Source: Gammaproteobacteria bacterium
GTDB lineage: Bacteria; Pseudomonadota; Gammaproteobacteria; 21-64-14
Direction of reading: 5' to 3'
DNA: 64,000 nt
NCBI GenBank assembly: GCA_027013145.1
Contig: JALUXX010000056.1
Coordinates: 88,975-152,974, forward strand
Every line of letters starts with the position of its first letter. Position 1 is the stretch's first letter. Position numbers and translations under genes: made by a program. Positions 23,825-56,570 of this stretch are shown here, in pieces. Below the pieces are notes generated by a model. It worked only from the letters and a program-made list of their open reading frames with translations, had not been told where the DNA came from and made no database searches.

Positions 23825-23870
23825 ATGGTGGGCGATGCTGGGATCGAACCAGCGACCCCTGCCGTGTGAA
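23825..23870. repeat. Distal att direct repeat, a partial duplicated 3' half of tRNA-Val(CAC)
   Basis: Identical to 56495-56540. Not part of a complete tRNA here. Confidence 0.8.
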
Positions 23871-25185: not shown

Positions 25186-26187
25186 ATGAACCGCGCGGAG
25201 CGCATTTACCGGCTGCATGCCGTCCTCGCCAGGGGGCGGACGGTTTCGATGCGCAGGCTCATGGAGGAATTGGATGCTTCCCGCGCCACGGTGGTGCGCG
25301 ACATTGCGTATCTGCGCGATTTCATGGGTGCCCCCATCCGCTACGATCGCGAGCGTAACGGCTACGGGTATGAGCCCGACGCACCGGAGTTTCAACTCCC
25401 CGGTCTGTGGTTCAACGACAGCGAGCTCTACGCGCTCCTTGCCAGCGAGCAATTGCTGGATGCGGTGCAGCCGGGCCTTCTTGGTCCTTATATTGGTCCG
25501 CTCAAGGCGCGTATCCGCGGGTTGCTTGAGCAGAGCGGTCATACCGCGGATCTCGTCAGCTCCCGCGTTTTGCTCCGCCCCTTCGCCCGGCGCCAGGTAG
25601 ATGACGAAATCTTCGGGCGCGTGTCCGCCGCGGTGCTGAGCGGGCATACGCTCGAAATTCAGTACCACGGCCGCGAACGCGAGGCGGTCAGCCGGCGGCG
25701 GATCCACCCCTACCGGCTGCTCCACTATCGCGACAACTGGTACCTGATCGCTTGGTGTGAACGGGCCCGTGGACTACGGACATTTTCCCTGGATCGCGTC
25801 CTTGCGGCCGCCGACACCGGGCAGGCCGTGCGCAAAGTCGAGGAAGCTACGCTCGACCGTCATCTCGGGGCCAGCTTCGGCATTTTTACCGGCGAGGCGA
25901 GTGCTTGGGCAGTTCTCCGGTTCACGCCGGAGCGTGCCCGCTGGGTTGCCGATGAGAACTGGCACCCGGACCAGATTGGGCGATGGGTCGGAGAGAGCTA
26001 CGAACTCCAGGTTCCGTACTCTGATGCGCGCGAGCTTCTGATGGATATCTTGAAGTACGGCCCCGATGTCGAGGTCCTGGCCCCGGATTCGTTGAGAAGC
26101 ATCGTCGCGGAGCGGCTATGCCGCGCGGCGGCTCGCTACGGCACTGCCCCGCATCCACCCCGTCCGGCCGGACCCGAAGCGGCGTGA
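25186..26187 (+). CDS. WYL-domain transcriptional regulator (HTH-WYL-WCX), a putative regulator of the adjacent cas operon
   Basis: N-terminal wHTH (MNRAERIYRLHAVLARGRTVSMRRLMEELDASRATVVRDIAYLRD), central WYL region (HPYRLLHYRDNWYLIAWCERARGLRTFSLDRV) and a C-terminal extension. Located immediately upstream of cas3. Confidence 0.75.
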   Translation: MNRAERIYRLHAVLARGRTVSMRRLMEELDASRATVVRDIAYLRDFMGAPIRYDRERNGYGYEPDAPEFQLPGLWFNDSELYALLASEQLLDAVQPGLLGPYIGPLKARIRGLLEQSGHTADLVSSRVLLRPFARRQVDDEIFGRVSAAVLSGHTLEIQYHGREREAVSRRRIHPYRLLHYRDNWYLIAWCERARGLRTFSLDRVLAAADTGQAVRKVEEATLDRHLGASFGIFTGEASAWAVLRFTPERARWVADENWHPDQIGRWVGESYELQVPYSDARELLMDILKYGPDVEVLAPDSLRSIVAERLCRAAARYGTAPHPPRPAGPEAA

Positions 26188-26981: not shown

Positions 26982-29384
26982 ATGGCATTTCACGATTTCT
27001 TCAACGAAGCATATGGCAAATCCGGCGATCGGGCGTTCGAGCCATACTCTTACCAACGTCGTCTAGCTGAAGAGCCATGGCCGCATCTGCTAGACGTGCC
27101 GACCGGCATGGGAAAAACCGCGGCGGTGGTCCTTTCCTGGATATGGAAGCGTGGCTGGCGGCAAGGTGCGCGCGGCGGCGGACTCGATCCTCAAACTCCG
27201 CGCCGTTTGGTCTACTGCCTGCCCATGCGCGCGCTGGTAGAACAGACAGTGGCCAATATAAAGAGCTGGCTGAAACACCTCGATCTATGCGGCGAGCCCG
27301 GTGAAAAAAAGATCAGCATCAACGTTCTGATGGGCGGCGATGAGCACGCCCGCAAGGCCGAATGGACGAGCTATCCAGAAGAAGACGCCATTATCGTCGG
27401 TACGCAGGATATGTTGCTCTCGCGCGCCCTGATGCGCGGCTATGGTATGAGCCGCCACCAATGGCCCGTCCACTTCGCGCTGTTGCACAATGATGCGCTG
27501 TGGGTATTTGACGAAGTTCAGTTGATGGGTGCGGGGTTGGTCACTTCTGCTCAATTGGAGGCCTTCCGCCGCGATTTTCCACTTGCCAAAAACAGTCGTA
27601 CGCTCTGGGTGTCCGCCACGCTGAATCGCGACTGGCTGGGCACGGTGGACTTTCAGCCCCACATAGATATGCTTATCACGCACGCAATCGGGAACGAAGA
27701 CCGGCAGCAGGCCGGTGACCGGCTGCAGGCGCAGAAGTCGCTTGCGAAAGCCGATATTTCGCTGTCGCAGGACGCCGGCAACAAGGCGGGGTTGCAAACG
27801 TACCTGGAGAACCTGCGCGACCTGGTGCTGCAAGCGCACGATCCCGCTACGCAAACGCTGGTCATCGTTAATCGCGTCGAACGGGCGCAGCGCTTGTTTC
27901 GGCTGCTGCGTGACAGCCGGCCGGACAAGGCTGATCTTCTGGTCCATGCCCGGTTCCGAGCCGCCGAACGTTCCGAGCAAGCGAGCTGTCTGCGCGATGA
28001 CGATAATGTAGACCGCATCGTCGTCGCCACACAGGCCGTCGAGGCTGGCGTGGACATTTCCTCAAAAATATTGGTGACCGAGCTGGCGCCATGGCCTTCC
28101 ATGGTGCAACGCTTCGGTCGCTGCAATCGATATGGAGAGCACAATGCGACAGGCGCGCGCATCCTGTGGGTGGATATCGAGGATGACAAGGGCTTGTCGC
28201 TTCCCTACGAGCGCGAAGCGCTATCCATTGCGCGTGACAAGCTGAATGGGCTTGATAACGCTTGTCCGCAACACCTTCCGCCCACCGATACGGCGCGACT
28301 GCTCACCGCCGTGCTGCGCCGCAAGGATCTGCTCGACCTGTTCAATACCGAGCCCGACCTGTCCGGCTTCGACGTGGACGTTTCCGATTACATCCGTGAC
28401 ACCGGAACGCCCAGCGTGCAAGTATTCTGGCGCGAATTCGGGAACGATCCGAACACCCCAGAACCGCAAGGCAGGCCTAGTCGCAGAGACCTATGTCCCG
28501 CGTCTCTAAGCCAAGCCAGGGAATTCGCCAAGCGCAAAGACGTTACTCTTTGGTGCTGGGATATGCTTGACCGCCGATGGGCGAAGCTCATACGCGATCC
28601 TCGTCCCGGGATGATCTTGCTCGCACATTCGGTAAGCGGAGGTTATGACAGAGATATTGGCTTCGATCCGGCATTAAAAACACCTGTTTCCGCCATTGAG
28701 GTCGAACAGGTACCCGAAGAAGACGCCTTTTCCGAAGACTGGCGTTCATATCAGAACAAGCCAGTGCCACTGGCCGATCATTTGAGCCACGTGGCTGCCC
28801 AAGCTGACAAACTATGCTTGGCGGTGGGTGAGACATCACATCGCGGCATCGTTGTACGTGCCGGACGCTGGCACGATCTCGGCAAAGCGCACGAAATCTT
28901 CGACGCCACCATGCATGCTTGCGACAAGGCGCCTGCCGGCTTTCTCGCCAAATCGCCCTGCAATGGTCGGCACAGTCGCAAGTTCTTCCGTCACGAACTG
29001 GCCTCCATGCTCGGCTGGTTGGCCCAGCACAATGGTGAACCCGATGCTGATCTGATCGCCTACCTGATTCTGGCCCACCACGGCAAGGTGCGCATGAGCC
29101 TGCGCGCTATGCCTGGTGAAGAAGCGGGCAATGGCGTCAAGCGCTTCGCACGTGGTATCTGGGAAGGTGACGCCCTGCCCGCATTGGGTTTCGATGGTGA
29201 GCACAGCAATGCAACCACACTCAAGCTTGCGCTGATGGAAATCGGCGAAGGCGAGCAAGGACCTTCCTGGACCGAGCGCAGCCTGAACCTGCTGGATCAC
29301 CACGGTCCGTTCCGATTGGCGTGGTTGGAAACCTTGGTGCGCTTGGCCGACTGGCGCGCTTCGGCTGAGGAGCAGCAGCCGTGA
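26982..29384 (+). CDS. cas3: Cas3 helicase-nuclease with C-terminal HD domain (type I-G/I-U architecture)
   Basis: Helicase motif I VPTGMGKT and DEAH-like DEVQ. C-terminal HD motifs (GRWHDLGKAHEIF, LILAHHGKVR) follow the helicase, which is the I-U/I-G hallmark. Confidence 0.85.
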   Translation: MAFHDFFNEAYGKSGDRAFEPYSYQRRLAEEPWPHLLDVPTGMGKTAAVVLSWIWKRGWRQGARGGGLDPQTPRRLVYCLPMRALVEQTVANIKSWLKHLDLCGEPGEKKISINVLMGGDEHARKAEWTSYPEEDAIIVGTQDMLLSRALMRGYGMSRHQWPVHFALLHNDALWVFDEVQLMGAGLVTSAQLEAFRRDFPLAKNSRTLWVSATLNRDWLGTVDFQPHIDMLITHAIGNEDRQQAGDRLQAQKSLAKADISLSQDAGNKAGLQTYLENLRDLVLQAHDPATQTLVIVNRVERAQRLFRLLRDSRPDKADLLVHARFRAAERSEQASCLRDDDNVDRIVVATQAVEAGVDISSKILVTELAPWPSMVQRFGRCNRYGEHNATGARILWVDIEDDKGLSLPYEREALSIARDKLNGLDNACPQHLPPTDTARLLTAVLRRKDLLDLFNTEPDLSGFDVDVSDYIRDTGTPSVQVFWREFGNDPNTPEPQGRPSRRDLCPASLSQAREFAKRKDVTLWCWDMLDRRWAKLIRDPRPGMILLAHSVSGGYDRDIGFDPALKTPVSAIEVEQVPEEDAFSEDWRSYQNKPVPLADHLSHVAAQADKLCLAVGETSHRGIVVRAGRWHDLGKAHEIFDATMHACDKAPAGFLAKSPCNGRHSRKFFRHELASMLGWLAQHNGEPDADLIAYLILAHHGKVRMSLRAMPGEEAGNGVKRFARGIWEGDALPALGFDGEHSNATTLKLALMEIGEGEQGPSWTERSLNLLDHHGPFRLAWLETLVRLADWRASAEEQQP

Positions 29385-29887: not shown

Positions 29888-33411
<3,524 letters not shown>

Positions 33412-36383: not shown

Positions 36384-38093
36384 ATGGACGAACCGCGCCA
36401 GGGGGAACTCCCCATGCCGTTCCCGGACCTTTCCGGGGACATGCCGCTGTTGCCGGCCCGAATGGTCAACGAGTACGAATACTGCCCGCGGCTCGCTTAC
36501 CTCGAATGGGTACAGGGGGAGTGGGCAGACTCGGGTGATACGGTTGAGGGCCGTCATGCCCACCGCCGCGTGGACCGCCCAGGTGGACGGCTCCCCGAAT
36601 CCAGCGGCGATCCGGCCGAGCGCTTGCACGCCCGCTCCATCACACTTTCCTCAAACCGCCTCGGCTTGATTGCCAGGATGGATCTGGTCGAATCGGAAGG
36701 TCACACCGTCACGCCTGTGGATTACAAGCGCGGCAAGCGCCCGCACGTGGCCAAAGGCGCCTACGACCCGGAGCGGGTTCAGCTCTGCATCCAGGGTTTG
36801 ATCCTCGAGGAACACGGTTACGCGTGCCCCGAAGGCGTACTCTATTTCTCCGGATCCCGCGAGCGTGTCCGTGTCGTCTTCGACGAGGAGTTACGCATTC
36901 AGACCATGGCGGCGGTCGACGGCCTCCGACTTATAGCGGCTGGCGGGCAAGTTCCGCCACCACTTCAGGACAGCCCAAAGTGCCCACGCTGCTCGCTGGT
37001 GTCCATCTGTCTTCCGGATGAGGTCAACTTCCTGCACAGCGGAAAACTGGAACCACGTCCGATGGCGGTCGGGCGGGACGAGAGCCTTCCGCTCTATGTC
37101 CAGGCCAATCGCGCGAAAGTCGCGAGGAAAGGGGAAACCCTGGAGATCACGGTGGACGACGAAAAGGCCGCATCGGCCAGGCTGCCGGAGGTGTCCCAGC
37201 TCGTGGTGATGGGTAACGTCTATGTCACGACGCCGACGCTGCATGAGCTCATGCGCCGCGGGATTCCGATTACCTGGTATTCCTACGGTGGCTGGTTCCT
37301 TGGCCACAGTATCGGTACCGGGCACAAGAACGTGGAGCTGCGGACCGCACAGTACCGTGCTAGCTTCGACAGCCGGGCCTGCCTGCATCTGGCTCGCGAT
37401 CTGGTGCGCGCCAAGATTCTGAACTGTCGAACGCTACTCAGGCGAAACTGGCGCGGAGAAAAATCGGTTGATTCGGTACTCGCGCTATTGAAACGAGATG
37501 CGGAAGCCGCTTTGCGGGCGAGTAATCTCGAGACGCTGTTGGGAGTGGAAGGCGCTGCCGCTTCGCGGTATTTTGGATCGTTCTCCCAGATGATCAAGCC
37601 GGAAGGCGATTCGAGCTCATTCTCCTTCGACTTTTCGCGGCGCAACCGTAGACCACCGACCGATCCTGTAAACGCGTTACTTTCATTCGCGTACGCTATG
37701 CTGACGCGCGTCTTTTCAGTGGTCCTGACTGCCGTAGGTTTCGATGCCTACCGCGGCTTCTATCACCAACCTCGCTATGGTCGTCCGGCTCTGAGCCTTG
37801 ACATGATGGAGCCGTTTCGCCCGCTACTGGCCGATTCCAGCGTACTCACCGCAATCAATAACGGTGAGGTCCGCCCAAGCGACTTTGTTTCGGCCGCAGG
37901 CAGCGTCGCTCTGAGCGCGGATGGACGTAAGCGGTTTATTGCGACCTTCGAGCGGCGTTTAAGCCACGAGGTGACTCATCCGCTGTTCGGCTACCGGGCT
38001 AGCTATCGGAGGGTGTTGGAGATCCAGGCTCGGCTGTTGGGGCGCCATCTGCTGGGTGAGTTGACTGAGTACCCTAATTTCCTGACGCGATGA
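36384..38093 (+). CDS. cas4-cas1: Cas4-Cas1 fusion protein (adaptation module of type I-G)
   Basis: N-terminal Cas4 RecB-nuclease with Cys motifs (EYEYCPRLAYLEW...; CPRCSLVSIC). C-terminal Cas1 (...LVVMGNVYVTTPTLHELMRRGIPITWYSYGGWFLG..., catalytic E/H/E region). An alternative start is the Met at 36414. Confidence 0.85.
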   Translation: MDEPRQGELPMPFPDLSGDMPLLPARMVNEYEYCPRLAYLEWVQGEWADSGDTVEGRHAHRRVDRPGGRLPESSGDPAERLHARSITLSSNRLGLIARMDLVESEGHTVTPVDYKRGKRPHVAKGAYDPERVQLCIQGLILEEHGYACPEGVLYFSGSRERVRVVFDEELRIQTMAAVDGLRLIAAGGQVPPPLQDSPKCPRCSLVSICLPDEVNFLHSGKLEPRPMAVGRDESLPLYVQANRAKVARKGETLEITVDDEKAASARLPEVSQLVVMGNVYVTTPTLHELMRRGIPITWYSYGGWFLGHSIGTGHKNVELRTAQYRASFDSRACLHLARDLVRAKILNCRTLLRRNWRGEKSVDSVLALLKRDAEAALRASNLETLLGVEGAAASRYFGSFSQMIKPEGDSSSFSFDFSRRNRRPPTDPVNALLSFAYAMLTRVFSVVLTAVGFDAYRGFYHQPRYGRPALSLDMMEPFRPLLADSSVLTAINNGEVRPSDFVSAAGSVALSADGRKRFIATFERRLSHEVTHPLFGYRASYRRVLEIQARLLGRHLLGELTEYPNFLTR

Positions 38094-42076: not shown

Positions 42077-43399
42077 GGTTCATCGCAGAAGTCCGGGGAG
42101 GTTGAGCTGGTGAAGCTGGCTCCGTACCGTTGCGCTGTGGCGACGACGGGGGGTGGGGCCATGTTTGACAAGGGTACTTTGAGCGAGCTGGGTGGCTGGA
42201 CGGGCTACCGGGTTGCGGACCTGGAGTACCGGCCCGGTGAAGGCTGGATGGGGCGAGGCAAGTTGCTGATCCGGTTGGAACCTCGCGGCCAGACGATGCG
42301 CTGCTCGCGCTGCGGGCAGGAGAGCCGGTCGGTGCATGACACCACGGTCAGGCGCATCCGCGACCTGCCCATTCTGGACTGGGATGTGGTGTTGATCGTC
42401 CCGCGCCGGCGGCTGTGGTGCGGGCACTGTGGTGGTCCCCGTCTGGAAGCGCTGGAGTGGCTGTCGGCGCACCGCCGGGTGACGCGGCGGCTGGAGGAAG
42501 CCATCGGGCGGCTGAGCCGGATGATGCCGTTGAAGCAGGTGGCGGCGTTCTATGGCGTGGGCTGGCACACGGTCAAGGCCATCGACAAGGCCCTGCTGGA
42601 GCAGGGGGTGCTGGAGCCCGACTGGCGCGGCATCGAGTACCTGGGCATGGATGAGTTTGCCCTGCACAAGGGGCATCGCTATGCCACGGTCATCGTGGAG
42701 CCCCTGCGTCGCCAGGTGCTGTGGGTGGGCGAAGGGCGCAGCCGCGAGGCCATCCGGCCCTTCTTCGAGGGTCTTGACGAGGCCACCCGCCGGCGTATCA
42801 AGGCGGTGGTGATGGACATGAACACCGCTTTCGATCTGGAGGTTCAGGCTCATTGTCCCCATGCGGAGGTCGTCTACGACCTGTTCCACGTGGTGGCCAA
42901 GTATGGCCGGGAGGTGATCGACCGGGTGCGGGTGGATGAGGCCAACCGGCTCAAGAAGGATCGCCCGGCCCGCAAGGTCATCAAGTCTGCCCGCTGGCTG
43001 CTGTTGCGCAACCGGGAGAACCTGGAGACGCCCGAGCAGGCGGTCCGCCTGGATGAGTTGCTGGCGGCGAATCAGGCCCTGATGACGGTCCATGTGCTCA
43101 AGGAGGACCTCAAGCGCCTGTGGCGCTATCGGCATGCCGGGTACGCCAAACGACTCTGGGAAGGCTGGTATCAGCGGGCCATGGAAAGCGCCATCGCGCC
43201 CCTGATGCAGTTTGCCCGGCGCCTGAGACCGTATCTCCAGGGCATCCTGGCCCATTGCCGCCACCCGCTGCACACCAGCGTGCTCGAGGGTATCAACAAC
43301 CGCATCAAGGTCATCAAACGCATGGCCTACGGCTTCCGGGATACCGACTACTTCTTCCTGAAAATCCGCGCCGCCTTCCCCGGAAATTTACGATGAACC
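42077..43399 (+). mobile_element. ISL3-family insertion sequence (1323 bp) inserted in a CRISPR spacer, with an 8-bp target site duplication TTTTTTTA
   Basis: Terminal IRs ggttcatcgcagaagtccgggga and tccccggaaatttacgatgaacc (imperfect, ~23 bp). Flanking direct repeat ttttttta at 42069-42076 and 43400-43407. Single transposase ORF. Confidence 0.8.
42110..43396 (+). CDS. ISL3-family transposase
   Basis: 428 aa. N-terminal zinc-finger region (RCSRCGQESRSVHDTTVRRIRDLPILDWDVVLIVPRRRLWCGHCGG) and a DDE core, typical of ISL3 transposases. GTG start. Confidence 0.85.
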   Translation: MKLAPYRCAVATTGGGAMFDKGTLSELGGWTGYRVADLEYRPGEGWMGRGKLLIRLEPRGQTMRCSRCGQESRSVHDTTVRRIRDLPILDWDVVLIVPRRRLWCGHCGGPRLEALEWLSAHRRVTRRLEEAIGRLSRMMPLKQVAAFYGVGWHTVKAIDKALLEQGVLEPDWRGIEYLGMDEFALHKGHRYATVIVEPLRRQVLWVGEGRSREAIRPFFEGLDEATRRRIKAVVMDMNTAFDLEVQAHCPHAEVVYDLFHVVAKYGREVIDRVRVDEANRLKKDRPARKVIKSARWLLLRNRENLETPEQAVRLDELLAANQALMTVHVLKEDLKRLWRYRHAGYAKRLWEGWYQRAMESAIAPLMQFARRLRPYLQGILAHCRHPLHTSVLEGINNRIKVIKRMAYGFRDTDYFFLKIRAAFPGNLR

Positions 43400-45287: not shown

Positions 45288-45983
45288 ATGTACGATCCAC
45301 CCGTCCAGATTCACAAAACTGTACTGATGCAGCGCATTCTCGATGCCGTGAGCCGCGGCTATCTTCTGTACACTGCCGGGAAGGTTCCGGCGGACAAGGC
45401 CCAGCGTCTCGCCGGCAAGTTTGCGACCCGTTACGCGGTACATCGGAACGAGAACCAAAGGGCGTACGCCCGTCGCAAGGGGCGGGCCAACGCCAGGCTC
45501 TTTCTCTACGCTCCGCCCAACGACACCGATCTTCGCTGGTGGTTGTGCGTCACGTCCGGGGCAGGGGCCGTGCATGAACTGGAAAAGCTCGCCGATGCCC
45601 GGAATCGGCACACGAGGGTTTGGATCGAGGAGGACTATGAGTTGATTCAGCTGAGCCGGAAAAAGGGGCAGGGGACCGGAACGGTCTGGACATGGAGGAT
45701 GACCCACGGCTGCGACGAGCGGTGGCGCCTGCGGCTGCGCCATGCCTGCCGCACGCCGGGCACCTCGGAGATCCGCTTGGCGATCGGCTCGCTGTCCCGG
45801 ACCCCGGGCTTCTCAGGCATCCGCCGGCAGGTCGGGGACCTGATGGTCTTTGCGCGGGCCGAGTGGCGCCGGCGCCATGGCAATTTGGATCGGTTTCCGG
45901 GGCTGCTCAGGCTGCGGTATGTCGAGCGCCTTTCGAACACCGCCGTGCCGTTGACCGCGTGGAAGCGGCGAAGCAGTCGGTAA
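45288..45983 (+). CDS. Hypothetical protein (231 aa), no recognised family
   Basis: GAGGAG RBS lies 10 nt upstream of the ATG. Basic protein (many R/K) with motifs WWLCVTSGAG and WTWRMTHGCDERW. A competing antisense ORF (45264-45743) makes the coding call uncertain. Confidence 0.35.
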   Translation: MYDPPVQIHKTVLMQRILDAVSRGYLLYTAGKVPADKAQRLAGKFATRYAVHRNENQRAYARRKGRANARLFLYAPPNDTDLRWWLCVTSGAGAVHELEKLADARNRHTRVWIEEDYELIQLSRKKGQGTGTVWTWRMTHGCDERWRLRLRHACRTPGTSEIRLAIGSLSRTPGFSGIRRQVGDLMVFARAEWRRRHGNLDRFPGLLRLRYVERLSNTAVPLTAWKRRSSR

Positions 45984-46771: not shown

Positions 46772-49700
46772 ATGTCGTCGGAGTCAATAGCAGCAAAGCG
46801 GTTCCTGCCGCGGGTGGTGAACGTCGTGCCTCGCCCGCGTTTGTTCGAGAAGTTGGATGGTATCCTCGCCGACTCAACGGTCGTGTGGGTGTCCGCTCCG
46901 GCTGGCTCTGGAAAGACCAGCTTGGTCGCGGGCTACTTGCAAGAGCGGGGCCTCTCCAGCCTGTGGTACCGCATCGAGGACGAGAATCCGGATTATAAAA
47001 GGTTCCAGGAACCGGACGGGACAAAAATGGGCGGGGAGGCGGCGGTAGCGACGCAGGTCGGGCTGGGCTGGGTTATTCGAACCCTCCAGCCGGGCACGAT
47101 TCTGGTGTTCGACAATTTGGCGTTTGCGCCCGACTCCACGCCCGTCGATTGGCTGCGGAAGGCTCCCTACGAACTTCCTCAGGGCAGCAAACTCATCGTA
47201 ATTTCCCGGGATAGCCCGCCCGCGGCGTTGGCTCGTCCGCGTATCAATGGGGCGCTGTTCGTTCTCGAGGGAGCCGAACTCCGCCTGACGGTCGAAGAGG
47301 CCCATGCCTTGGCCGATCTGCGCGCCGCGGAGGGCCGGCAGCCGCCGGCGGATACGATCCGCGCGATGTGGGAATGGGTGGACGGGTGGCCGGCGGGGTT
47401 CGCGGTGCTGTTCAACGGTCTCGGCGCCGGCGACTTATCAAGTCAGCCGCCGCCATGGCCCGACGAGCGCCTGCTGTTTGACTACCTGGCGGTCGAGGTT
47501 TTCGGGGCCCTGGCACACCACGAGCGGGATTTTCTGCGCTGCGTCTCCATCCTGCCCGTTGTGACGCCGGAGATCGCCGCGGCCGTTTGCGAAGTCCCGG
47601 ACACCGTGGCGATGCTGGAGTCCGTTTCTCGCCGGCTCGGGATATTCGTCCGTGAGATACCGCCGGGCGGGCGGAGTTATACCTTCTCCCCGATCTTCCG
47701 GGCATTCCTCGCCGAGCGGCAGCGGGAAGCGACGACCTCGGGCGAGCGGGGGGCGCTGGCACGCAACGCTGCCGATGCGCTTTCCAACGCCGGCAGGGTA
47801 GACGACGCCGTACACGTCCTTGCCACCCACGGCGAGTGGGCGGCGCTCGGCGCTCTGGTTTCCCGGGAAGCGCGCGGGCGCTTCGCCAAAGGCGACGGCG
47901 CATCCGTGCTGAGTTGGCTGAAACCGGTTCCGCCCGGTGTTTTGGAGAAGGATGCCGATCTCTGCTACTGCATGGGCGCGGCCAAGACCCCGCTCGATTT
48001 CGCCGAAAGTCTCAGATGGTTTGAACGCGCCTATACCCTGTACTCGGAACAGGGCGAGCGATTCGGGGCGCTGAACGCCTGGTCGGCGATCGTGGAGACG
48101 ATCTTCTTCCAGTGGGGAGACTTTTCGAAACTCAGGAGCTGGATCCATGTCGGGGAGAAGTTGTTGGCGGGCGGCTCGGACATACCGGACGGGCCCGTCG
48201 GACGGCGCGCGGTAGGCGCTATGTTCAACGCCCTGATGAACGGCCAGCCGGACCATCCGAAAATCGGCGCCTGGGCGCAGCGAATGCGCAGAATACTGCG
48301 CGAGATCGACGACGACAGCGAACGCCTCCTGATGGGGACGGGGCTTTTCATCTACTACACCAAGTGGCTGGGAGAGCACGGCCAGGCCGAGATCGTGCTG
48401 GAAATGCTCTGCCCGCCGCCGGAACGGAAGCCGCAGCTCACGCCTATGGCGCGGATCTTGCTGGCCATGGCGCAGTGCACCTACCACTGGAACCGATACG
48501 AGCTGGCAGCTGCGGATAGCGCGATCCAGGACGGGTTCGCGACGGCGGAGCGCTGCGGTATCCGGATCTGGGACTTTCTTTTGCACGCGCAGCCCATTTA
48601 CGCGGGCCTGAGCAGCGGCGACCTTCCTAAGGCCGACCGCTACCTCTCCCGCATGCGGGAACTGCTTCCGAGGAGGGCGCCGTTGGACCATGCGCACTAC
48701 CACTATCTCGCGGGCTGGGAAGCGATGCTGCGGGAGGACTCTCATCGGGCGCTGGAGCACGTCCAATACGCCCTGGAACTGGTTACTGAGGCGAGGGGGC
48801 CGATGCAACACGCCTTGACCTGTCTGGCCATGGCGCAGGTTCGCCATACGCTGAAAGAGGATCAGCACATCCCCGCGCTATTGGCAGATGCGCGGAAGAT
48901 GGCTGAGGGGGCCGGCAGCGCGTTGCTGAAATTCCTGATCGCCTACTCGGAAGCCTGGTTTGCTCTTGATGAGGGAAATGGCGCCGCCTGCCGGGCATCG
49001 CTTTCCCGCGCGTTCGCTTTGGCCAGAGAGCATGGATATGTCAACTTCACATGGTGCATTCCGACCGTTCTGGTACGTCTGTGTGTGGAGGCGTTGAAAG
49101 CTGAAGTCGAGACGCCGTTTGTTCAGCGCCTTATCCGTTCCCGAGGCTTAAGGTGTAGCGCGCCGCCGGTACAGCTGGAACACTGGCCATGGAGTATACG
49201 GGTCTACACCCTGGGCCGGTTCGGCGTGGTGAAAGACGACACACCGCTCCGTTTCTCGGGGAAGGCACAGCGCAGACCGTTGCAGATGCTGAAAGTACTG
49301 ATCGCTTTAGGCGGCCGTGAGGTACCCGAAAGTCGCTTGAGCGAGATTCTTTGGCCCGATGCGGAGGGCGACAAGGCTCACTCGGCGTTTACGACCACTT
49401 TGGCACGCCTGCGCAAGCTGGTCGGTGAGGAGTCGCTGTGTTTTCGGGACGGCCGATTGTCCGTTGACGCCCATCGCTGCTGGGTGGATGCGTGGGTTCT
49501 TCAGCGGCTGCTGGGAGAAGCGGAGACTGCTCCGAGCAGCGAAAGTGCACGGGCCCTGATGCACAAGGCACTGGATCTTTATCGCGGAGCGTTTTTGGGT
49601 TCCGAAGAAGATACCCCATGGGTTCGGGGCGCGCGTGAGCGCGTACGCAGGCGTCTCGTTCAGACGGTGAAGGTCGGTGCACGCTATTTTGGTTCGGGTC

Positions 49701-49774
49701 CAGCTCGCACTCAGACCGCGGCTATGCTCAGCCAATTTGTAGCCGTAGACCCCAGCCTGGAAGATATAATCTGA
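46772..49774 (+). CDS. MalT-like STAND NTPase regulator with C-terminal SARP module (OmpR-type winged helix + BTAD)
   Basis: N-terminus RFLPRVVNVVPRPRLFEKLDG...VVWVSAPAGSGKTSLVAGYL...SLWYRIEDENPD parallels the MalT pre-NBD, Walker A and WYSLDE region. Long helical/TPR-like middle. C-terminus YTLGRFGVVKDDTPLRFSGKAQRRPLQMLKVLIALGGREVPESRLSEILWPD...LARLRKLVG...YRGAFL matches the trans_reg_C + BTAD pattern of SARP regulators. Confidence 0.7.
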   Translation: MSSESIAAKRFLPRVVNVVPRPRLFEKLDGILADSTVVWVSAPAGSGKTSLVAGYLQERGLSSLWYRIEDENPDYKRFQEPDGTKMGGEAAVATQVGLGWVIRTLQPGTILVFDNLAFAPDSTPVDWLRKAPYELPQGSKLIVISRDSPPAALARPRINGALFVLEGAELRLTVEEAHALADLRAAEGRQPPADTIRAMWEWVDGWPAGFAVLFNGLGAGDLSSQPPPWPDERLLFDYLAVEVFGALAHHERDFLRCVSILPVVTPEIAAAVCEVPDTVAMLESVSRRLGIFVREIPPGGRSYTFSPIFRAFLAERQREATTSGERGALARNAADALSNAGRVDDAVHVLATHGEWAALGALVSREARGRFAKGDGASVLSWLKPVPPGVLEKDADLCYCMGAAKTPLDFAESLRWFERAYTLYSEQGERFGALNAWSAIVETIFFQWGDFSKLRSWIHVGEKLLAGGSDIPDGPVGRRAVGAMFNALMNGQPDHPKIGAWAQRMRRILREIDDDSERLLMGTGLFIYYTKWLGEHGQAEIVLEMLCPPPERKPQLTPMARILLAMAQCTYHWNRYELAAADSAIQDGFATAERCGIRIWDFLLHAQPIYAGLSSGDLPKADRYLSRMRELLPRRAPLDHAHYHYLAGWEAMLREDSHRALEHVQYALELVTEARGPMQHALTCLAMAQVRHTLKEDQHIPALLADARKMAEGAGSALLKFLIAYSEAWFALDEGNGAACRASLSRAFALAREHGYVNFTWCIPTVLVRLCVEALKAEVETPFVQRLIRSRGLRCSAPPVQLEHWPWSIRVYTLGRFGVVKDDTPLRFSGKAQRRPLQMLKVLIALGGREVPESRLSEILWPDAEGDKAHSAFTTTLARLRKLVGEESLCFRDGRLSVDAHRCWVDAWVLQRLLGEAETAPSSESARALMHKALDLYRGAFLGSEEDTPWVRGARERVRRRLVQTVKVGARYFGSGPARTQTAAMLSQFVAVDPSLEDII

Positions 49775-49918
49775 CCGCGGGTTGTCGAGTCACCGGTAGA
49801 ACTAGTAAGGTGTCATTCTCTAATCTATAGCATTCCATTCAGGCCGACTGAAGTCCGTTCGTTCCCGCACTCATGGTTGGTTCCTCAGGGGATCCTCACA
49901 GCGCGAGCCTGGATGCGC

Positions 49919-49955
49919 ATCTGTGACCTATCTGTGACACACCCGTCGGTATACT
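49919..49955 (+). promoter_or_regulatory. Two direct repeats with 11-bp phasing (ATCTGTGACCT ATCTGTGACAC) followed 9 bp later by TATACT. Candidate SARP-type activator site plus -10 element.
   Basis: Seen directly at 49919-49940 and 49950-49955, between the STAND-SARP regulator gene and the downstream low-GC operon. SARP proteins bind direct repeats with 11-bp periodicity overlapping the -35 region. Confidence 0.4.
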
Positions 49956-50298
49956 CGCATAGGCCTCCCGAAAAGGACTTGGCCATCCGGCGGAAATGGC
50001 AACTTTCAGCAGGCCGGATTCAATAAGCAGAAACGATCATTTTCACAAAAACGACCGAAAAGTTTTGGGCTGTGCAACTGAGATTGCTGATGGGGTACCA
50101 ATCTGTTCCAACCCTAAAGCTCGGCAACCGAGCATATCGAAGTACACTGGCGGCTTGTGTGGTGCGACGGCAAGTGCAGTCACGGGTTCGTCTGGAAGCC
50201 GCAACTCCGGCGAAGCGCCGCCGTGCTTTATACGAAGGGCTAACCTGGATTTCGATCCATAAAGGTGTCAGTGATGTTCCAAAATTACAAAGCCTCCT

Positions 50299-51123
50299 GT
50301 GGCAGAGGGCGGTAACATGCCGATCAAAATAAAAATTCCGTCGACGCTCCGACGGTATGCCGTATCCGTAAAGCAGATACCTGGAAGCTCCACTTCTAGA
50401 TTTATTTTTGTCATAGCTGTCTCCTTGCTCTCGTCCGCATGCAGTCCAATGACATTTACGCGCACTGTTATGGACTGGCAGCCCTACGACCACAATGAAA
50501 TGAGCCAAAGGAAGAGCGGCGTCGTAGCTCAGCTAAAGTGGATAACTCCAGGATCTCTTCCTTCCGACTTCTACTTCCGCGTCCAGGCCTGCAATAGGTA
50601 TGGGCAGCTGCTCGTTGATCAACTCGGCCACCCGGTATTTGAGAACGTCAGCCCAGCGAGCAATCAGCAGATGTGGGAGAAGATTGCGCTAACAAACAAC
50701 ACGCGGCATGTGATTCGCTTGAACCAAGTCGTCATCCGGCTGTTCGACCCCAATGGGAATCAAATCAGACCCCTGACCAGAAACGACGTTGCGTCCGCAT
50801 TTCTTCAGCGGCGCCCCTGTTCGTCGTCCAATATCGCGTTAGACGAGTTTCGCAGGATAAATATATTCAATAGAAATCTCGAAGTCGTGCCTGGAACGAC
50901 CTCCACTTTCTGGGTTGCATTCCCGACCGTAGCGGCAAATCTTCCAGGTGTTTGGAAATTTGCACTGTACGAAGTACCGGTCCGGGTTGATGCTACTGGC
51001 CGCGCGACTAAGACTACACAATTTGATATCCGGATGGTCGCCAAGGAGGTGGTGGAGACATATAGAGCGGCCAACATTTTCGCGCCGTCAGTTCTGGTCA
51101 GTGCGAAAACGAAAGCTCCGTAG
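50299..51123 (+). CDS. Hypothetical lipoprotein in a low-GC cargo segment
   Basis: Signal/lipobox FIFVIAVSLLSSAC. ~48% GC versus ~68% in the backbone. No recognisable domain. An internal Met (MPIKIKIP) is an alternative start. Confidence 0.5.
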   Translation: MAEGGNMPIKIKIPSTLRRYAVSVKQIPGSSTSRFIFVIAVSLLSSACSPMTFTRTVMDWQPYDHNEMSQRKSGVVAQLKWITPGSLPSDFYFRVQACNRYGQLLVDQLGHPVFENVSPASNQQMWEKIALTNNTRHVIRLNQVVIRLFDPNGNQIRPLTRNDVASAFLQRRPCSSSNIALDEFRRINIFNRNLEVVPGTTSTFWVAFPTVAANLPGVWKFALYEVPVRVDATGRATKTTQFDIRMVAKEVVETYRAANIFAPSVLVSAKTKAP

Positions 51124-51890
51124 TGTCTGGCGCCCAACCGCTCGGCGGCTGGTGTCGCATCGAGTCACATTTTGCCACCTTGGCAATCTTTCGGAGTTCA
51201 TTCGGAACCGAAAAATGACCGTGGAATAAAGCTGGAAAGATTCGGCGCACCGACCGTTTCTAAAAGGGATGGCGGATATTTGTATACCAGAATGTCCGTA
51301 CGATAGCGACAATCCGCGGAGGATATGAACCCGGCCGACAGGCGACAGCCTGGACGCTTGCCCCGGTACTTGGTGAGAGGGTGCGGCGAGTCCCGGATGG
51401 AAGCAATGGGGGATTCTGGGCTGAAAATCAACGGGTGCGTTGAATTCCACGTGTTTAAGGGATGGGAGGATCCGCCTGATTGCCGGGGCACTTGCAAGTG
51501 CTGGCGCAGGCTTCAATAAAGCAGGTTAACGGCACCTCGGATTTTCTGAGCGCGTGGCTAAGCGGTGCGGGCCAAGGAGTGCGTTGTGGGATGGGGGAGG
51601 TAAGACAGGCCCGGCCTATCGTGTGGGCTGATCGAAGGCTATGGGCCGCGTACAGTGGACCGGCGGCGCCTCCCGTTGGGTCCCGGGTTTTTTGTGCTGT
51701 GGGCGGTGCTCTGTACAGTTGGGCAATCGGGCTGGTCAAATTGCTGAGTGCCGGTTACGTAGGCCGGCGTGTCTGTCTGCATGGATAGATTTGGGGGCGG
51801 TGGTTGATGAGTGGAATTTAGACGTTAGAAGGGGCAATGGCCCAGCTGTGAGTGTCTGAGATGGTGTTTCGCTGGCAGGGGCGGGGGGCA

Positions 51891-54821
51891 ATGAAGAAGA
51901 TGCTAAAGCTTCTGAGAGCGGCATTGATGCTGGTCTTAACGATGCTTGTCGCCGCGTGTCAGAGCGGCGGAGGGTCGGGGGGGGCGGCGCCACCTGAGAC
52001 ATCGGCGACTTCGGTGATCTTGCGAATCGCGCCTTTCGGGAGCGGTAGCATCGTTAGCTTGCCCGACGGGATCGACTGTGGAACAGCCTGTTCGAGGTCT
52101 TTTCCGACCGGCACGAAGGTGGTGCTTACGGCCAATGCATCGCCTGGGGAGAAACTGGTCAACTGGGCGGGGTGCGATAGCAGCAGCGGAAATCAGTGCA
52201 CTGTAACTTTGGATCATCAGCGCTTGATCTTACCGACCTTTGCCTCATCGGCGCCGACCGAGATTCAGCCGTCAGTTGTAGTACTCAATGCCGCGACTAT
52301 CGGCGCAATCGTTAAACAAGTTGGGAGTATCTATTATTTTGCGCCTGGCACCACAGCCGCCTCGGATTTGCGGACGGGGAATGTAATTGTCAGGCACGGA
52401 ATGACTTCCTCCGGGGTGGATATAGGAATCCTTGCTCGAGTTGTTACTGTTACTAATGAACCCGATGGGACGATTGCGGTTTCGACGACTCCGGCTAGAC
52501 TAACGGATGTAATACAATCAGGCACCGTCTGGTACAGTGCGCCTCTTGTTCCGGCGCAACTCACGGCGGCAAAGGCGTTGGTGGCGGGAGTATCGGTAAC
52601 AGGCGCATCGGTGGCTTGTTCAGCGCACTCGACAAGCCAATTCGCCGTACCACTTAATCATGTTTTGGTCGGTAGCGGGGGAAATCAGATCACGATAAGC
52701 GGCTGCTTGAAGTTGTCCTTTGCGCCAGATTTCGCTCTTGATATTAGTCCGTTCTCTGGTGTCAGCGAATTCCGGGCAGCTCTTATCACGACGAGCAGCC
52801 AATCTCTAAATCTTGATGCCGCAACAGGGATCAGCCTTAACGCGCAAACGGCTATCGCGCGGTATTCTTTTAGTGCTATTCCTGTCTATCCGCCCTTTGT
52901 CTGGATTACCCCTACGGTAACCGTGTATCTGGGTACTCAGGTGCAAGCGGATGGCTCTGTGCATCTTGGCGTCATGGTACAGGAAGACGCGAAAGGGGGG
53001 GTGGAATATCGGCAGGGTATCGGTTGGGGGGCTATCGGTGAATTTACCCCGACCTTCACGGGACCGAGCTCTCAGTTCGCAGGCCAGGCGACTGCCACTG
53101 GCTACGTAGAACCGAACTTCTCAATGCCAGTCGACGGTCTGGCGGGCCCCTTTGTCGCATTAAAGGGCTACCTCCAAGGGGATTCTTGGGCCGCAACGGG
53201 AAGAAGTGACGCCGTAGGATGGGAATTATATGGAGGAGCTGCCGGGTACGCCGGGATGGCAGCCGAGCCTCTGGGGTGGAACCTGGGGGAGGTCCAGCTC
53301 CAACTCTTCGACGACCGGACTCTATTGGCGAGCAGCGTGGGTACGGTGGCGGATACGGCGCCGCCCTCGGTGCCCGAAAACGTTGTCGCCACGGCAGCTT
53401 CGCCCAGCGAGATCGACCTTTCCTGGGGTGCAGCTACGGACGATACTGCGGTCAAGAACTATAAGGTCTACGTGGGCGCCAATTTATGGAAGACCATTAG
53501 CGGTACATACGCTGCGGACAAAGGTATTCCGCCAGGAACGGAAGTCTGCTATTCGGTGGAGGCAGTGGACGAGGGTGGAAACGTTTCGGCGCCGTCAAAG
53601 ACGGTGTGTGCGACCACGCCGCTGGCGAACGATAGCACACCGCCCACCGCTACGACGGCCCCTAACATTACTGCTGTAACCTCCAATTCGGTGACGCTAT
53701 CCTGGAAGGCGGCGACTGACAATGTCGGTGTTGCGGGCTATACGGTCGATCGTAACGGGTCGCCGATCGCAACAGTGTCGACCACAGGATATACGGATAG
53801 CTCGCTTACGAAAGGTGCGAAGTACTGTTATACAGTCCAGGCATTCGACGCTGCGGGAAATGTTTCGGCGGCGAGTGGGCAAGCTTGTGCGACCACGGCA
53901 AGCGGTGGTGTGAGGACAGTGGACCTGTATGTCGTAAACGGAGCGCCCGTGGGCATCACCGGATCCGTATCGGTGATCGATCCTGCAATCGGAAAAATCG
54001 TCGGAAGTATTCCTGTGGGTACGGGCTCGGGTGACATTGCGGTGAGCTCGGACGGGAGCCGGGCCTATGTCACGAATTCTGTCGATAATACGGTCTCGGT
54101 CATCGATACCGCCACTGACCATGTAGTCGCGGTCGTACCTGTAGGCAACAATCCTTCGGGTGTTGCGGTGAGTCCCGATGGTGGGCAGGTCTACGTCATA
54201 AATACTCTACTATATCCTTCGGTGTCCGTGATTAGCGCCGCTAGCGATAAAGTGGTCGCGACGTGGCCTATGAGTGTTCCGGCCGCGGGTATTGCGGTGA
54301 GCCCAGATGGCAGTCACGTTTACATCACGGCTTTTGCTTCTCCCGCTACGATGTACGTGGTCAACGCCGCGAACGGTCAAGTCGTCGCGGGGGTCGACTT
54401 AAGTGCTGGCGCTGGGCCTGTTACAGTTAGTCCGGACGGAAGCAAGGTCTATATTCCGAACGATTCTGTGTTGTATGGAGCGCTATCGGTAATTGACGCG
54501 GCAACCGATAAGGTGGTTGGGACCGTGCCCGTAGGCGCCGGGCCCAATGCTGTTGCGGTGAGCCCAGACGGCAGCCGGGCCTACGTCGTGAACGGAGTGA
54601 GTGGTACGGTATCGGTGATTGACACGGCAACCGATAAGGTGGTTGGGACCGTGCCCGTAGGCGCCGGGCCCAATGCTGTTGCGGTAAGCCCGGACGGCAG
54701 CCAAGCCTACGTGGCGAATAGCCTGGAAGGTACAGTGTCTGTAATCGATACCGCGAGTGACGAAGTGGTCGTGACGTTGTCGGGGCTCTATAATCCATCA
54801 GGCATTGCGGTCGGGCCATGA
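51891..54821 (+). CDS. Large surface lipoprotein with Ig-like/fibronectin type III domains and a C-terminal YVTN-family beta-propeller
   Basis: Signal and lipobox MKKMLKLLRAALMLVLTMLVAAC. Fn3-like segments (PSVPENVVATAASPSEIDLSWGAATDDTAVKNYKVY; TAPNITAVTSNSVTLSWKAATDNVGVAGYTVDRNG). At least 7 tandem ~42-aa repeats of the form VSPDGS.AYV.N.....VSVIDTATDKVV.TVPVG..P..VAVSPDG form the YVTN beta-propeller. Confidence 0.7.
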   Translation: MKKMLKLLRAALMLVLTMLVAACQSGGGSGGAAPPETSATSVILRIAPFGSGSIVSLPDGIDCGTACSRSFPTGTKVVLTANASPGEKLVNWAGCDSSSGNQCTVTLDHQRLILPTFASSAPTEIQPSVVVLNAATIGAIVKQVGSIYYFAPGTTAASDLRTGNVIVRHGMTSSGVDIGILARVVTVTNEPDGTIAVSTTPARLTDVIQSGTVWYSAPLVPAQLTAAKALVAGVSVTGASVACSAHSTSQFAVPLNHVLVGSGGNQITISGCLKLSFAPDFALDISPFSGVSEFRAALITTSSQSLNLDAATGISLNAQTAIARYSFSAIPVYPPFVWITPTVTVYLGTQVQADGSVHLGVMVQEDAKGGVEYRQGIGWGAIGEFTPTFTGPSSQFAGQATATGYVEPNFSMPVDGLAGPFVALKGYLQGDSWAATGRSDAVGWELYGGAAGYAGMAAEPLGWNLGEVQLQLFDDRTLLASSVGTVADTAPPSVPENVVATAASPSEIDLSWGAATDDTAVKNYKVYVGANLWKTISGTYAADKGIPPGTEVCYSVEAVDEGGNVSAPSKTVCATTPLANDSTPPTATTAPNITAVTSNSVTLSWKAATDNVGVAGYTVDRNGSPIATVSTTGYTDSSLTKGAKYCYTVQAFDAAGNVSAASGQACATTASGGVRTVDLYVVNGAPVGITGSVSVIDPAIGKIVGSIPVGTGSGDIAVSSDGSRAYVTNSVDNTVSVIDTATDHVVAVVPVGNNPSGVAVSPDGGQVYVINTLLYPSVSVISAASDKVVATWPMSVPAAGIAVSPDGSHVYITAFASPATMYVVNAANGQVVAGVDLSAGAGPVTVSPDGSKVYIPNDSVLYGALSVIDAATDKVVGTVPVGAGPNAVAVSPDGSRAYVVNGVSGTVSVIDTATDKVVGTVPVGAGPNAVAVSPDGSQAYVANSLEGTVSVIDTASDEVVVTLSGLYNPSGIAVGP

Positions 54822-55342: not shown

Positions 55343-56347
55343 TCAGGGCTTGGCAAGTTGGTCGAGCTTGTCTATGAGATGCTGGGTGCTTGGATGGGCA
55401 TAGCGCCGAAAGACCCGCATGTCCTTATGCCCACTGACCGCCATCGCCTCGATCACGTTCCAGCCGGCTTCCACCAGGCTGGATACGCGTTCGTGGCGCA
55501 GATCATGCAGTCGAAAATCCTCGAGTCTCGCCCGCATCCGCAGCCGCTTCCAGGCCAATTTCACCGCATTGACGGTGAGCCCCTCGAAGACGTATGTCCC
55601 GCTGCCCGTGAGTCTGCGCAGCCCGCGCAGCGCGGCGGTCGCGCGTCGTGAGAGCGGCACTTGCCGGCCCTGGCCGTTCTTCGTCTGTGCGTCTCGCAGG
55701 CCGATGACACGCTGCTTCAAGTTGACCTGTCGCCACTCGATCCCGAGCAGCTCGCCGCGGCGCATGCCGCTCTCGCGCGCCAGGGTCACGAAGGTCCGGA
55801 ACAGCGGGTTCCGGCACCGGCGAAGCGCGGCGTCCAGGCGTCGGCGCTCGTCGGGATCCAGGCGACGGGTGCGGTTGGGCGAATTCTTGGGGCGATCGAC
55901 ATCCGCCATCGGGTCGTGGGGGAGGAGATGGCGTTTGCGTGCCCGACGCAGGGCGCGGGAGAGGATGGAAAGCTCGCGGTTGACCGTGGAGCCCGAGACC
56001 GTGGTCAGCCGCGACTCGATGTAGTCTTCGATGACGCCGGCGTTGATCTCGGCCAATGACAGCGTGGCGAGGGGGTGGCGCATCATCGCCAGTACGCGTT
56101 TGTTTTCGATGGCGGCCCCGCGGTGCAATGGGACGACCTTGCGCCGGTAGTCCTCCAGGACATCGCTGAGTGTCGTCTGTTGGGCGGCCAGGGTTTCGGG
56201 AAGGGCGCCGAAGTCGATATCCCGTTCTTTGGCGCGGACCCAGGTCTCGGCCTCGCGGCGGGTGTCGAAGGTGGCGGTGAGTGTCGCATACCCGCGCCGG
56301 CGGATTCGGGCTTGATAGGCGCGACCGCGCCGCGTGATGGATGCCAT
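55343..56347 (-). CDS. int: Tyrosine-type phage integrase / site-specific recombinase
   Basis: MASITRRGRAYQARIRRRGY... N-terminal arm-binding/SAM-like domain. C-terminal catalytic region with RHDLRHERVSS...VSGHKDMRVFRRYAH (R..HxxR..Y). GAGGAG RBS. Start trimmed to the ATG at 56347. Confidence 0.85.
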   Translation of the reverse strand: MASITRRGRAYQARIRRRGYATLTATFDTRREAETWVRAKERDIDFGALPETLAAQQTTLSDVLEDYRRKVVPLHRGAAIENKRVLAMMRHPLATLSLAEINAGVIEDYIESRLTTVSGSTVNRELSILSRALRRARKRHLLPHDPMADVDRPKNSPNRTRRLDPDERRRLDAALRRCRNPLFRTFVTLARESGMRRGELLGIEWRQVNLKQRVIGLRDAQTKNGQGRQVPLSRRATAALRGLRRLTGSGTYVFEGLTVNAVKLAWKRLRMRARLEDFRLHDLRHERVSSLVEAGWNVIEAMAVSGHKDMRVFRRYAHPSTQHLIDKLDQLAKP

Positions 56348-56495
56348 ATCGCTTCTCCTCGTCTGTGGGGACAAGGGGTGTAGCGAATGGCGAGGCGGAT
56401 TCGACCGGCGGTCGGGCGAATTTGACCGAATTGGAGCAAATTGGAGCAAATTGCCCCGACGTGCCCGGCCCGGATGCCGTAAGTCATTGAAAACA

Positions 56496-56570
56496 TGGTG
56501 GGCGATGCTGGGATCGAACCAGCGACCCCTGCCGTGTGAAGGCAGTGCTCTCCCGCTGAGCTAATCGCCC
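56496..56570 (-). tRNA. tRNA-Val (anticodon CAC), the island integration target
   Basis: Reverse complement GGGCGATTAGCTCAGCGGGAGAGCACTGCCTTCACACGGCAGGGGTCGCTGGTTCGATCCCAGCATCGCCCACCA. Anticodon loop TTCACAC. Acceptor stem GGGCGAT/ATCGCCC. Its 3' 46 nt are duplicated at 23825-23870. Confidence 0.85.

Follow-up and report, generated by a model that had tools for sequence, protein, structure and literature searches.

Escherichia coli MalT consists of an N-terminal ATPase core of the signal transduction ATPase with numerous domains (STAND) class, a helical sensor (domain III), and a C-terminal helix-turn-helix (HTH) of the LuxR/GerE type, and it acts at direct-repeat sites beside the promoter. 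In Streptomyces coelicolor AfsR, a Streptomyces antibiotic regulatory protein (SARP) module is placed N-terminally, followed by an NB-ARC core and a TPR sensor in the same polypeptide, and SARPs bind as side-by-side dimers to 11-bp direct repeats which overlap the -35 element (PMC10936776). The SARP-LAL regulators of the PimR type, from polyene clusters, carry an N-terminal SARP module and a MalT-related LAL half without an HTH (PMC10972967) and bind heptameric direct repeats (PMC10972967, PMC5930380). Mycobacterium tuberculosis EmbR combines an N-terminal SARP module with a C-terminal FHA domain and has no STAND ATPase. The SARP module has been described only at the N terminus, and SARPs have been called actinomycete-specific (PMC10972967, PMC10936776). 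Here we report a computational analysis of a gene for a protein of 1,000 residues (the regulator) in a 64-kb stretch of gammaproteobacterial DNA (contig JALUXX010000056.1; the window). Its layout is that of MalT with the LuxR-type output exchanged for a SARP module, comprising an OmpR-type winged helix and a bacterial transcriptional activation domain (BTAD). We consider it probable (roughly 0.65) that the regulator is a MalT-style, ATP- and ligand-gated, oligomerizing activator of the adjacent lipoprotein gene, acting through its SARP module on a 22-bp box.

A MalT-clade ATPase core joined to a C-terminal SARP module

Hidden Markov models, family profiles, and the predicted structure divided the regulator into a MalT-clade STAND ATPase core, a MalT-like helical sensor, and a C-terminal SARP module, and they agreed on this order, which the first-pass annotation had read from the letters alone. 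Neither an unrelated fold at the C terminus nor a P-loop ATPase of another class was found. The motifs quoted in that annotation were all present in the translation, with RPRLFEKLD at residues 21 to 29, APAGSGKT as the Walker A motif, and WYRIEDENPD at residues 65 to 74 in the N-terminal part and YTLGRFGV, RRPLQMLKVLIALGGREVPESRLSEILWPD, ARLRKLV, and YRGAFL within the last 200 residues. The full-length AlphaFold2 (AF2) model had a pLDDT of 87.4 and a pTM of 0.78, and its best Foldseek match in the PDB was MalT (8bob).

The N-terminal part matched MalT model NF003420 of NCBIfam with E=6.8e-33 and a score of 113.7. This is far under the equivalog cutoff of 537, indicating that the protein is a relative of MalT and not MalT itself; no mal genes were found nearby, and orthology to the maltotriose-responsive regulator is thus not indicated. 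Against the PDB, MalT 8bob was matched with E=5.6e-11 by the single sequence and with E=3e-70 by a family profile built from 54 full-length homologues, in which MalT residues 3 to 414 were colinear. The colinear N-terminal 400 residues take in the segment before the P-loop, Walker A, the WY..DE.D motif, and the winged-helix domain. Because this nucleotide-binding oligomerization domain (NOD) is of the MalT clade, whereas AfsR has an NB-ARC, the regulator is not merely AfsR reversed. With AfsR it shares the SARP fold and the presence of a STAND core and repeat sensor in one polypeptide, but the SARP is first in AfsR and last here. The SARP-LAL proteins likewise unite a SARP with a MalT-related ATPase half; in the regulator, however, it is the MalT half that leads, and the SARP stands where the HTH would be.

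The alignment and the AF2 model exhibited the features of a STAND ATPase, namely, a Walker A motif of the form GxxGxGK[ST], a Walker B motif of the form hhhhD, a sensor-1 Arg, and a nucleotide-binding domain (NBD), helical domain, and winged-helix domain followed by a helical-repeat sensor. D114 and a sensor-1-like Ser-Arg pair (S145/R146) were invariant or nearly so in the family. The core differs from that of MalT at two positions. The Walker B motif ends in DN instead of DD; the family form is hhVFDN, with DN in 45 and DD in 7 of the 54 members. The His of the winged-helix-domain motif YHPLF, present in MalT (CYHPLF) and in 46 of the 54 members, is replaced by Ser in all seven sequences of the subclade to which the regulator belongs. 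The corresponding His-Asp motif has been described as the nucleotide-binding leucine-rich-repeat receptor (NLR) activation switch in AfsR (bioRxiv 10.64898/2026.09.02.748808). In the sensor, the AF2 model consisted of helix pairs with a pLDDT above 90, and the family profile (positions 580 to 783) matched the MalT DT3 structure 1hz4 with E=6e-12.

In the C-terminal part, the sole Pfam find was the BTAD, at residues 905 to 998 (E=7.5e-7; score, 30 bits; cutoff, 22.1), covering profile positions 1 to 97 of 146. The other Pfam domain that had been expected there, Trans_reg_C, gave no score on the regulator, and the LuxR/GerE HTH (PF00196) was not found in it by Pfam. The winged helix-turn-helix (wHTH) was recovered by other means. 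The NCBIfam AfsR model aligned residues 809 to 964 with AfsR 29 to 183, that is, the wHTH and the start of the BTAD (E=1.5e-8), and the family profile matched the whole wHTH and BTAD of the AfsR SARP (8jke, 8k60, and 8hvr; AfsR 29 to 264) with E ~1e-22 and EmbR 2fez (residues 16 to 255) with E=5.6e-12. The AlphaFold model of residues 795 to 1000 (pLDDT 92.7) had a wHTH made up of a β-sheet, three helices, and a β-hairpin, followed by a BTAD of four helices. Its strong PDB matches were AfsR and EmbR only (E 2e-6 to 4e-5; TM 0.53 to 0.64), with the AfsR structures best and EmbR (2fez/2ff4) at E ~3e-5; the DNA-binding domains of OmpR and PhoB ranked next, over the wHTH portion only.

The module had been called an unmistakable SARP; a SARP is indeed present, but its BTAD is truncated. 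The BTA domain of AfsR has seven helices (PMC10936776), and the last of these are missing from the regulator. In the C-terminal alignment, the regulator and its six closest relatives (P0002 to P0007; 50 to 59% identity) lacked the last 45 to 70 residues of the rest of the family, and these are the same seven sequences that carry the His-to-Ser replacement. A frameshift as the origin of the short C terminus was rejected, since the seven diverged sequences have the short form with differing tails; the short BTAD is therefore conserved and did not arise by recent damage. This bears on the view that the gene is a decaying, nonfunctional copy carried as cargo on an island, to which the shortened BTAD, the loss of the switch His, and the Walker B DN could be counted as lesions, together with the location on a mobile island with an ISL3 transposase near. 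We regard decay as highly improbable, since the reading frame is uninterrupted over its 3 kb, the truncation and the His-to-Ser replacement are common to seven sequences that are 50 to 59% identical, implying purifying selection, the predicted operator (see below) is conserved beside short-form genes, DN is the family norm, and the AF2 model is confident throughout.

The arrangement had been described as unusual, which proved true relative to the literature only. Literature searches for a C-terminal SARP/BTAD, or for a BTAD combined with MalT, returned no paper describing the architecture of the regulator, and the definition of SARPs found there (N-terminal module, actinomycete host) does not cover a module at residues 805 to 1000 of 1,000 in a Gram-negative gammaproteobacterium. 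In sequence space, an exhaustive HMMER search at E<=1e-30 gave 3,626 representatives of 50%-identity clusters, of which the best 150 were all ~1,050 to 1,100 residues long and matched end to end, with the query covered through residues 965 to 999; PF00196 was confined to a more distant tier of homologues, which matches only 25 to 40% of the query. A word-indexed search found ~75 full-length clusters with WHD_MalT and BTAD. A scan of GTDB species genomes revealed relatives in at least 545 species from at least 8 phyla, the best 80 belonging to the Gamma- and Betaproteobacteria, Nitrospirota, Desulfobacterota, Acidobacteriota, Planctomycetota, Myxococcota, Methylomirabilota, and Spirochaetia. 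Some members are labeled "MalT/DNA-binding SARP family" by JGI and some "BTAD domain-containing putative transcriptional regulator" by NCBI. The MalT-SARP architecture is therefore frequent in nature and known to annotation pipelines, while apparently uncharacterized. One family representative (P0172) has 1,890 residues, with the MalT-SARP unit at residues 814 to 1807 and an N-terminal extension of ~800 residues.

A predicted operator and promoter behind the regulator gene

The predicted operator starts 145 bp past the stop codon of the regulator gene, in the order ATCTGTGACC-T-ATCTGTGACA, 10 bp, TATACT (Table 1). It contains a perfect pair of the 9-mer ATCTGTGAC, at 49919 and 49930 with a spacing of 11, of which there are no other exact copies in the window. 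In two loci from other samples, L003 and L005, whose regulators are 54% and 50% identical to that of the window, a similar box was observed just past the stop codon, and when the intergenic regions of the three loci were aligned, the operator-promoter box was the sole conserved block. The 10 bp between repeats and -10 hexamer are CACCCGTCGG in the window; the box reads ATCTGTGACC, T, ATCTGTGACC, 10 bp CAAGATCCGG, and TATGGT in L003 and ATCAGTGACC, T, ATCTGTGACC, 10 bp TGATGCGCGG, and TATATT in L005.

The association of family and box was found in both directions. Family loci were retrieved by protein similarity alone, with a profile of 12 sequences, and 81 of them were scanned for the degenerate motif ATCnGTnACnnATCnGTnAC, allowing up to 2 mismatches in its 14 fixed positions. 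There were 48 occurrences in 33 of the loci, compared with 1 to 6 in shuffles, and most sites lay 30 to 560 bp 3' of the regulator stop on the same strand, some being divergent. Conversely, an exact 20-mer of the box was found on 42 metagenome contigs; on 8 of these, the stored flank included a family regulator. Pooling all loci gave 45 distinct operator instances, preceded by a T/A-rich flank. In 28 of these, TAnnnT occurred at an offset of exactly 31 nt, counted from the start of the box, and no other offset was found in more than 7.

The regulators found by way of the exact ATCTGTGACC box were only ~28% identical overall to the window protein, and their predicted recognition helix read AHSAFTTTL[LF]RLRQ or AHSAFSTTLNRLR[TA], compared with AHSAFTTTLARLRK in the window. 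When helices were set beside operators, AHSAF[TS]TTLxRLR went with ATCTGTGACC (the window, L003, L005, L113, L127, L123, and L122/L125/L115), AHRSFTSALHRLRK went with ATCGGTAAGC (four Burkholderiales loci), and AHTALAMALHRLRK went with ATCCGTTACC (L027 and L044). These pairings are suggestive of operator variants that covary with the recognition helix across the family.

No -35-like hexamer was found at the proper spacing at the predicted promoter, and the operator sits in the -35 position. A consensus promoter scan did not pick up this promoter because it lacks a -35 hexamer, as expected for a promoter that depends on an activator. Direct repeats recognized by SARPs have a spacing of 11 or 22 bp, overlap the -35, and adjoin a -10. 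Judged from the sequence, the locus would have this geometry, with 11-bp repeats over the -35 position and next to the -10, as in AfsR. The first-pass annotation had guessed that the regulator activates the adjacent gene, and these conserved repeats lend that guess support.

The same operator might instead serve a repressor, or an occluder whose DNA-binding module is defective in activation, in which case the bound protein would block RNA polymerase at the -35 and spacer until a signal released it. This is the main rival to activation. It could account for an operator that overlaps the core promoter and for the BTAD truncation shared by the seven sequences of the subclade, since the missing part bears most of the contact residues for sigma region 4 and the C-terminal domain of the α subunit (α-CTD) that were defined in AfsR. 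Nevertheless, we consider repression unlikely. A promoter without a recognizable -35 would be weak by itself and offer little to repress; family members with a full BTAD have the identical operator and -10 geometry; the upstream protomer of AfsR meets sigma region 4 through the wHTH, which is intact in the regulator; and truncation and operator are conserved together across 50 to 59% identity, arguing for a working system.

Other candidate sites were also considered. With up to 3 mismatches, the degenerate motif gave no convincing second site in the window and none 5' of the regulator or of the 989-residue gene. Two imperfect 9-mer pairs with 11-bp spacing, GGTTCCTCA/GGATCCTCA at 49879 to 49898, which has no conserved counterpart in L003 or L005, and TCTTTCGGA/TCATTCGGA at 51187 to 51206, were not taken as operators. 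Among the 42 contigs with the 20-mer, three had three tandem 11-bp repeats (L101 at 851 to 881, L105 at 1543 to 1573, and L124 at 82 to 112), and three-repeat operators were also observed downstream of the regulator in L022, L072, and L034. Such operators would be consistent with a higher oligomer as the bound form. Two boxes were present on one contig in L027, L082, L113, L119, and L122, and many boxes lay in flanks of at least 5 kb without a regulator; the regulons are therefore probably multi-promoter.

Table 1. Features of the regulator gene, its predicted operator and promoter, and the surrounding island (window coordinates)
Feature	Coordinates	Strand	Description and basis
Regulator gene	46772..49774	+	ATG start, uninterrupted, 1,000 codons; open reading frame (ORF) list and translation
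NOD (NBD, helical domain, winged-helix domain), residues 1-400	46772..47971	+	Colinear with E. coli MalT 3-414; 8bob, Foldseek
Walker A/P-loop APAGSGKT, residues 42-49	46895..46918	+	G45, G47, and K48 invariant in 54 family members
Walker B ILVFDN, residues 110-115	47099..47116	+	Asp114 conserved; second acidic residue is Asn; MalT counterpart LVIDDY
Winged-helix-domain motif SYTFSPIFRAFL, residues 302-313	47675..47710	+	His of YHPLF (MalT, family) is Ser
All-helical sensor/arm, residues ~401-795	47972..49156	+	MalT domain-III-like; profile and AF2
OmpR-type wHTH, residues ~805-905	49184..49486	+	AfsR model, profile versus AfsR/EmbR, AF2 and Foldseek
Predicted recognition helix DKAHSAFTTTLARLRKLV, residues 867-884	49370-49423	+	Helix-operator covariation
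BTAD, truncated	49484..49771	+	4 helices versus 7; ends close to the position matching AfsR residue 220
Predicted operator ATCTGTGACCT / ATCTGTGACAC	49919..49940	+	Two direct repeats, 11-bp period; repeat search, cross-locus conservation
Predicted -10 hexamer TATACT	49950..49955	+	Starts 20 bp after start of downstream repeat
First downstream gene, likely direct target	50317..51123	+	268-residue predicted lipoprotein, LLSSAC lipobox
Second downstream gene	51852..54821	+	989 residues, probable start 51891; translation and Pfam
Left att repeat	23825..23870		46 bp, identical to 56495-56540; exact repeat search
Island end	55343..56570	-	Tyrosine integrase 55343-56449 and tRNA-Val(cac) 56496-56570; Pfam Phage_integrase E=1.2e-24, ARAGORN

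Genes behind the operator and the proposed mechanism

The first-pass annotation had proposed an operon at 50299 to 54821 under the control of the regulator. This operon was not confirmed, since only the first gene, whose true start is 50317, lies behind the predicted promoter, and a gap of 730 to 770 bp without an operator separates it from the second. The second gene is nonetheless possibly also under the regulator. The first gene was also present in the gene calls of two other assemblies of the locus (L001 and L002). Pfam found no domain in its 268-residue product, which has ~40 homologue clusters, mostly longer and with the peptidoglycan-binding domain PG_binding_1; in three checked contexts of these homologues, neither a MalT-SARP regulator nor the operator was found. 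The second gene product is a large lipoprotein (MKKMLKLL..LVAAC-QSGGGSGG) with 2 fn3 domains and a β-propeller of the YncE/lactonase type.

A PG_binding_1-bearing homologue of the first lipoprotein was observed in L131/L132 (911 to 7092), downstream of a 1,104-residue STAND regulator and a gene resembling an extracytoplasmic function (ECF) sigma factor. That regulator has the classical order, BTAD, then AAA_16, then TPR_MalT, and the same family of lipoprotein targets may thus be tied to both arrangements of SARP-STAND regulator.

An untranslated leader of ~355 nt (49956 to 50316) runs from the predicted promoter to the first gene. The leader in L003 is ~510 nt (3971 to 4489), and in other contigs the operator was commonly followed by leaders of 130 to 900 nt. 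A riboswitch or other leader RNA was rejected because Rfam was empty over 49700 to 52000, even at permissive thresholds, and the leader was not conserved across the window, L003, and L005.

Exported proteins were overrepresented behind the operators. By a home-made heuristic, signal-peptide-like N termini were scored in 31 of 42 ORFs behind operators; among control ORFs taken from loci of the same kind, the figure was 135 of 475 (Fisher p=8e-9). The Pfam domains of these ORFs were mostly extracellular, comprising PKD, fn3, Big_1, Big_5, invasin D3, and TTR-like domains, C25 and S8 peptidases, CHAP, outer membrane protein (OMP) β-barrels, and lactonase propellers, and a minority of products were cytoplasmic or membrane proteins. 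No single conserved target family was found behind the operators; the gene behind the L003 box, for example, encodes a Gly-rich lipoprotein of 1,152 residues which has only propeller repeats in common with the large lipoprotein of the window. In an all-against-all BLAST of the ORFs of 82 family loci, no neighbor family occurred in more than 6, and the function of the regulator can therefore not be read from a conserved operon.

The proposed activator mechanism has its computational basis in the domain identities, the conserved operator, the fixed -10 distance, the covarying recognition helix, and the bias toward exported proteins downstream; ATP and ligand gating, oligomerization, and activation rather than repression are suggested by analogy with MalT and AfsR. 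At rest, the NOD would hold nucleotide and the helical sensor would keep the regulator monomeric. A ligand on the sensor, together with ATP binding, would open the NOD and lead to oligomerization. The oligomer may then set two neighboring SARP modules side by side on the 11-bp-spaced ATCTGTGACC repeats. Since the box is in the -35 position of a promoter predicted to have a -10 only, the bound SARP pair would replace -35 recognition and recruit RNA polymerase, turning on the first lipoprotein gene and possibly the fn3/β-propeller lipoprotein gene as well.

Several points weigh against this activator mechanism. In AfsR, sigma region 4 is contacted by L243, E246, L247, V249, and R252 and the α-CTD by R240, D245, E246, D250, and L263 (PMC10936776), and the BTAD of the regulator stops before most of these positions; activation may thus be weak or use a different route. 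The YHPLF His-to-Ser replacement and the Walker B Asn mean that the nucleotide switch may behave unlike that of MalT. By our own count, the distance between box and -10 exceeds that of the afs box in afsS by ~3 bp. The helix-operator covariation is confounded by phylogeny, some of the loci behind the signal-peptide comparison are related to one another and its score is heuristic, and the leader in the window has neither an Rfam match nor conservation.

The island and the significance of the family

As the first-pass annotation had supposed, the regulator gene lies within a mobile island. The integrated element is 32.7 kb long (23825 to 56540) and is bounded by a 46-bp att repeat, the right copy of which is the 3' part of tRNA-Val(cac), with an integrase at that end. 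The guanine-plus-cytosine content is ~0.51 to 0.65 within the island and ~0.67 to 0.74 in most of the flanking sequence. For the host, an uncultured gammaproteobacterium, GltX identity was 85% with "bacterium BMS3Bbin12" and 75% with Inmirania thermothiophila. An ORF of 231 residues (45288 to 45983) without a Pfam match lies upstream of the regulator gene in the same orientation; it was called as a gene in L001 and L002 and was not observed beside homologues. The island also carries a WYL/HTH regulator (25186 to 26187) and a CRISPR-Cas system resembling type I-U/I-G, with Cas3 at 26982 to 29384, Cas_GSU0053 at 32296 to 33411, a Cas4-Cas1 fusion at 36384 to 38093, and an array of ~48 repeats (GTATTCCGCAGCATCACGCTGCGGCCTCATTGAAGC) from 38591 to ~42070, which is directly abutted by the ISL3 transposase (42110 to 43396).

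The presence of a STAND ATPase on an island that also bears CRISPR-Cas raises the question of an antiviral role, which had been left open in the first-pass annotation. In such an Avs-like system, the repeats would sense a phage protein and the output could be, for example, envelope proteins that block infection. Avs3 and AVAST5 were among the Foldseek matches of the full-length model, through the common NOD and repeats, and the predicted targets are surface or secreted proteins. PADLOC, however, matched 0 families, and no enzymatic or pore-forming effector was found, the sole non-core domain being a DNA-binding SARP with a cognate predicted promoter. The nearest match of the core in both sequence and structure is the metabolic regulator MalT, and the 82 family loci have no conserved neighbor family or consistent defense context. 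We therefore regard an antiviral function as very unlikely.

For the window itself, activation of the lipoprotein gene is a reasonable functional assignment and not a new principle. What is new here is the predicted operator code, promoter geometry, and target class. With considerable reservation, we raise a wider possibility, namely, that MalT-SARP proteins may form a major, so far unrecognized class of one-component switch among bacteria other than actinomycetes, Gram-negative ones included. These switches would share an ATCnGTnACC direct-repeat promoter code and turn on highly variable, often horizontally acquired surface or secreted proteins, as a programmable "surface cargo" regulon carried on islands along with its regulator. 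Under this tentative proposal, the loss of the MHD-like His and of the contact helices in the subclade of the window would mark a distinct, possibly constitutively primed route of activation.

SARPs have been described as actinomycete-specific proteins with an N-terminal module, and MalT and LAL proteins as having a LuxR-type output; the MalT-SARP family joins both outside the actinomycetes. It also provides natural variants of the MHD-type His and of the BTAD-RNA polymerase contacts, both of which are under study in NLR-like switches. Through the operator, regulons could be assigned to the thousands of proteins annotated as "BTAD domain-containing putative transcriptional regulators," and, together with the promoter geometry and the recognition-helix code, all of them predicted, the operator makes the MalT-SARP family directly testable.

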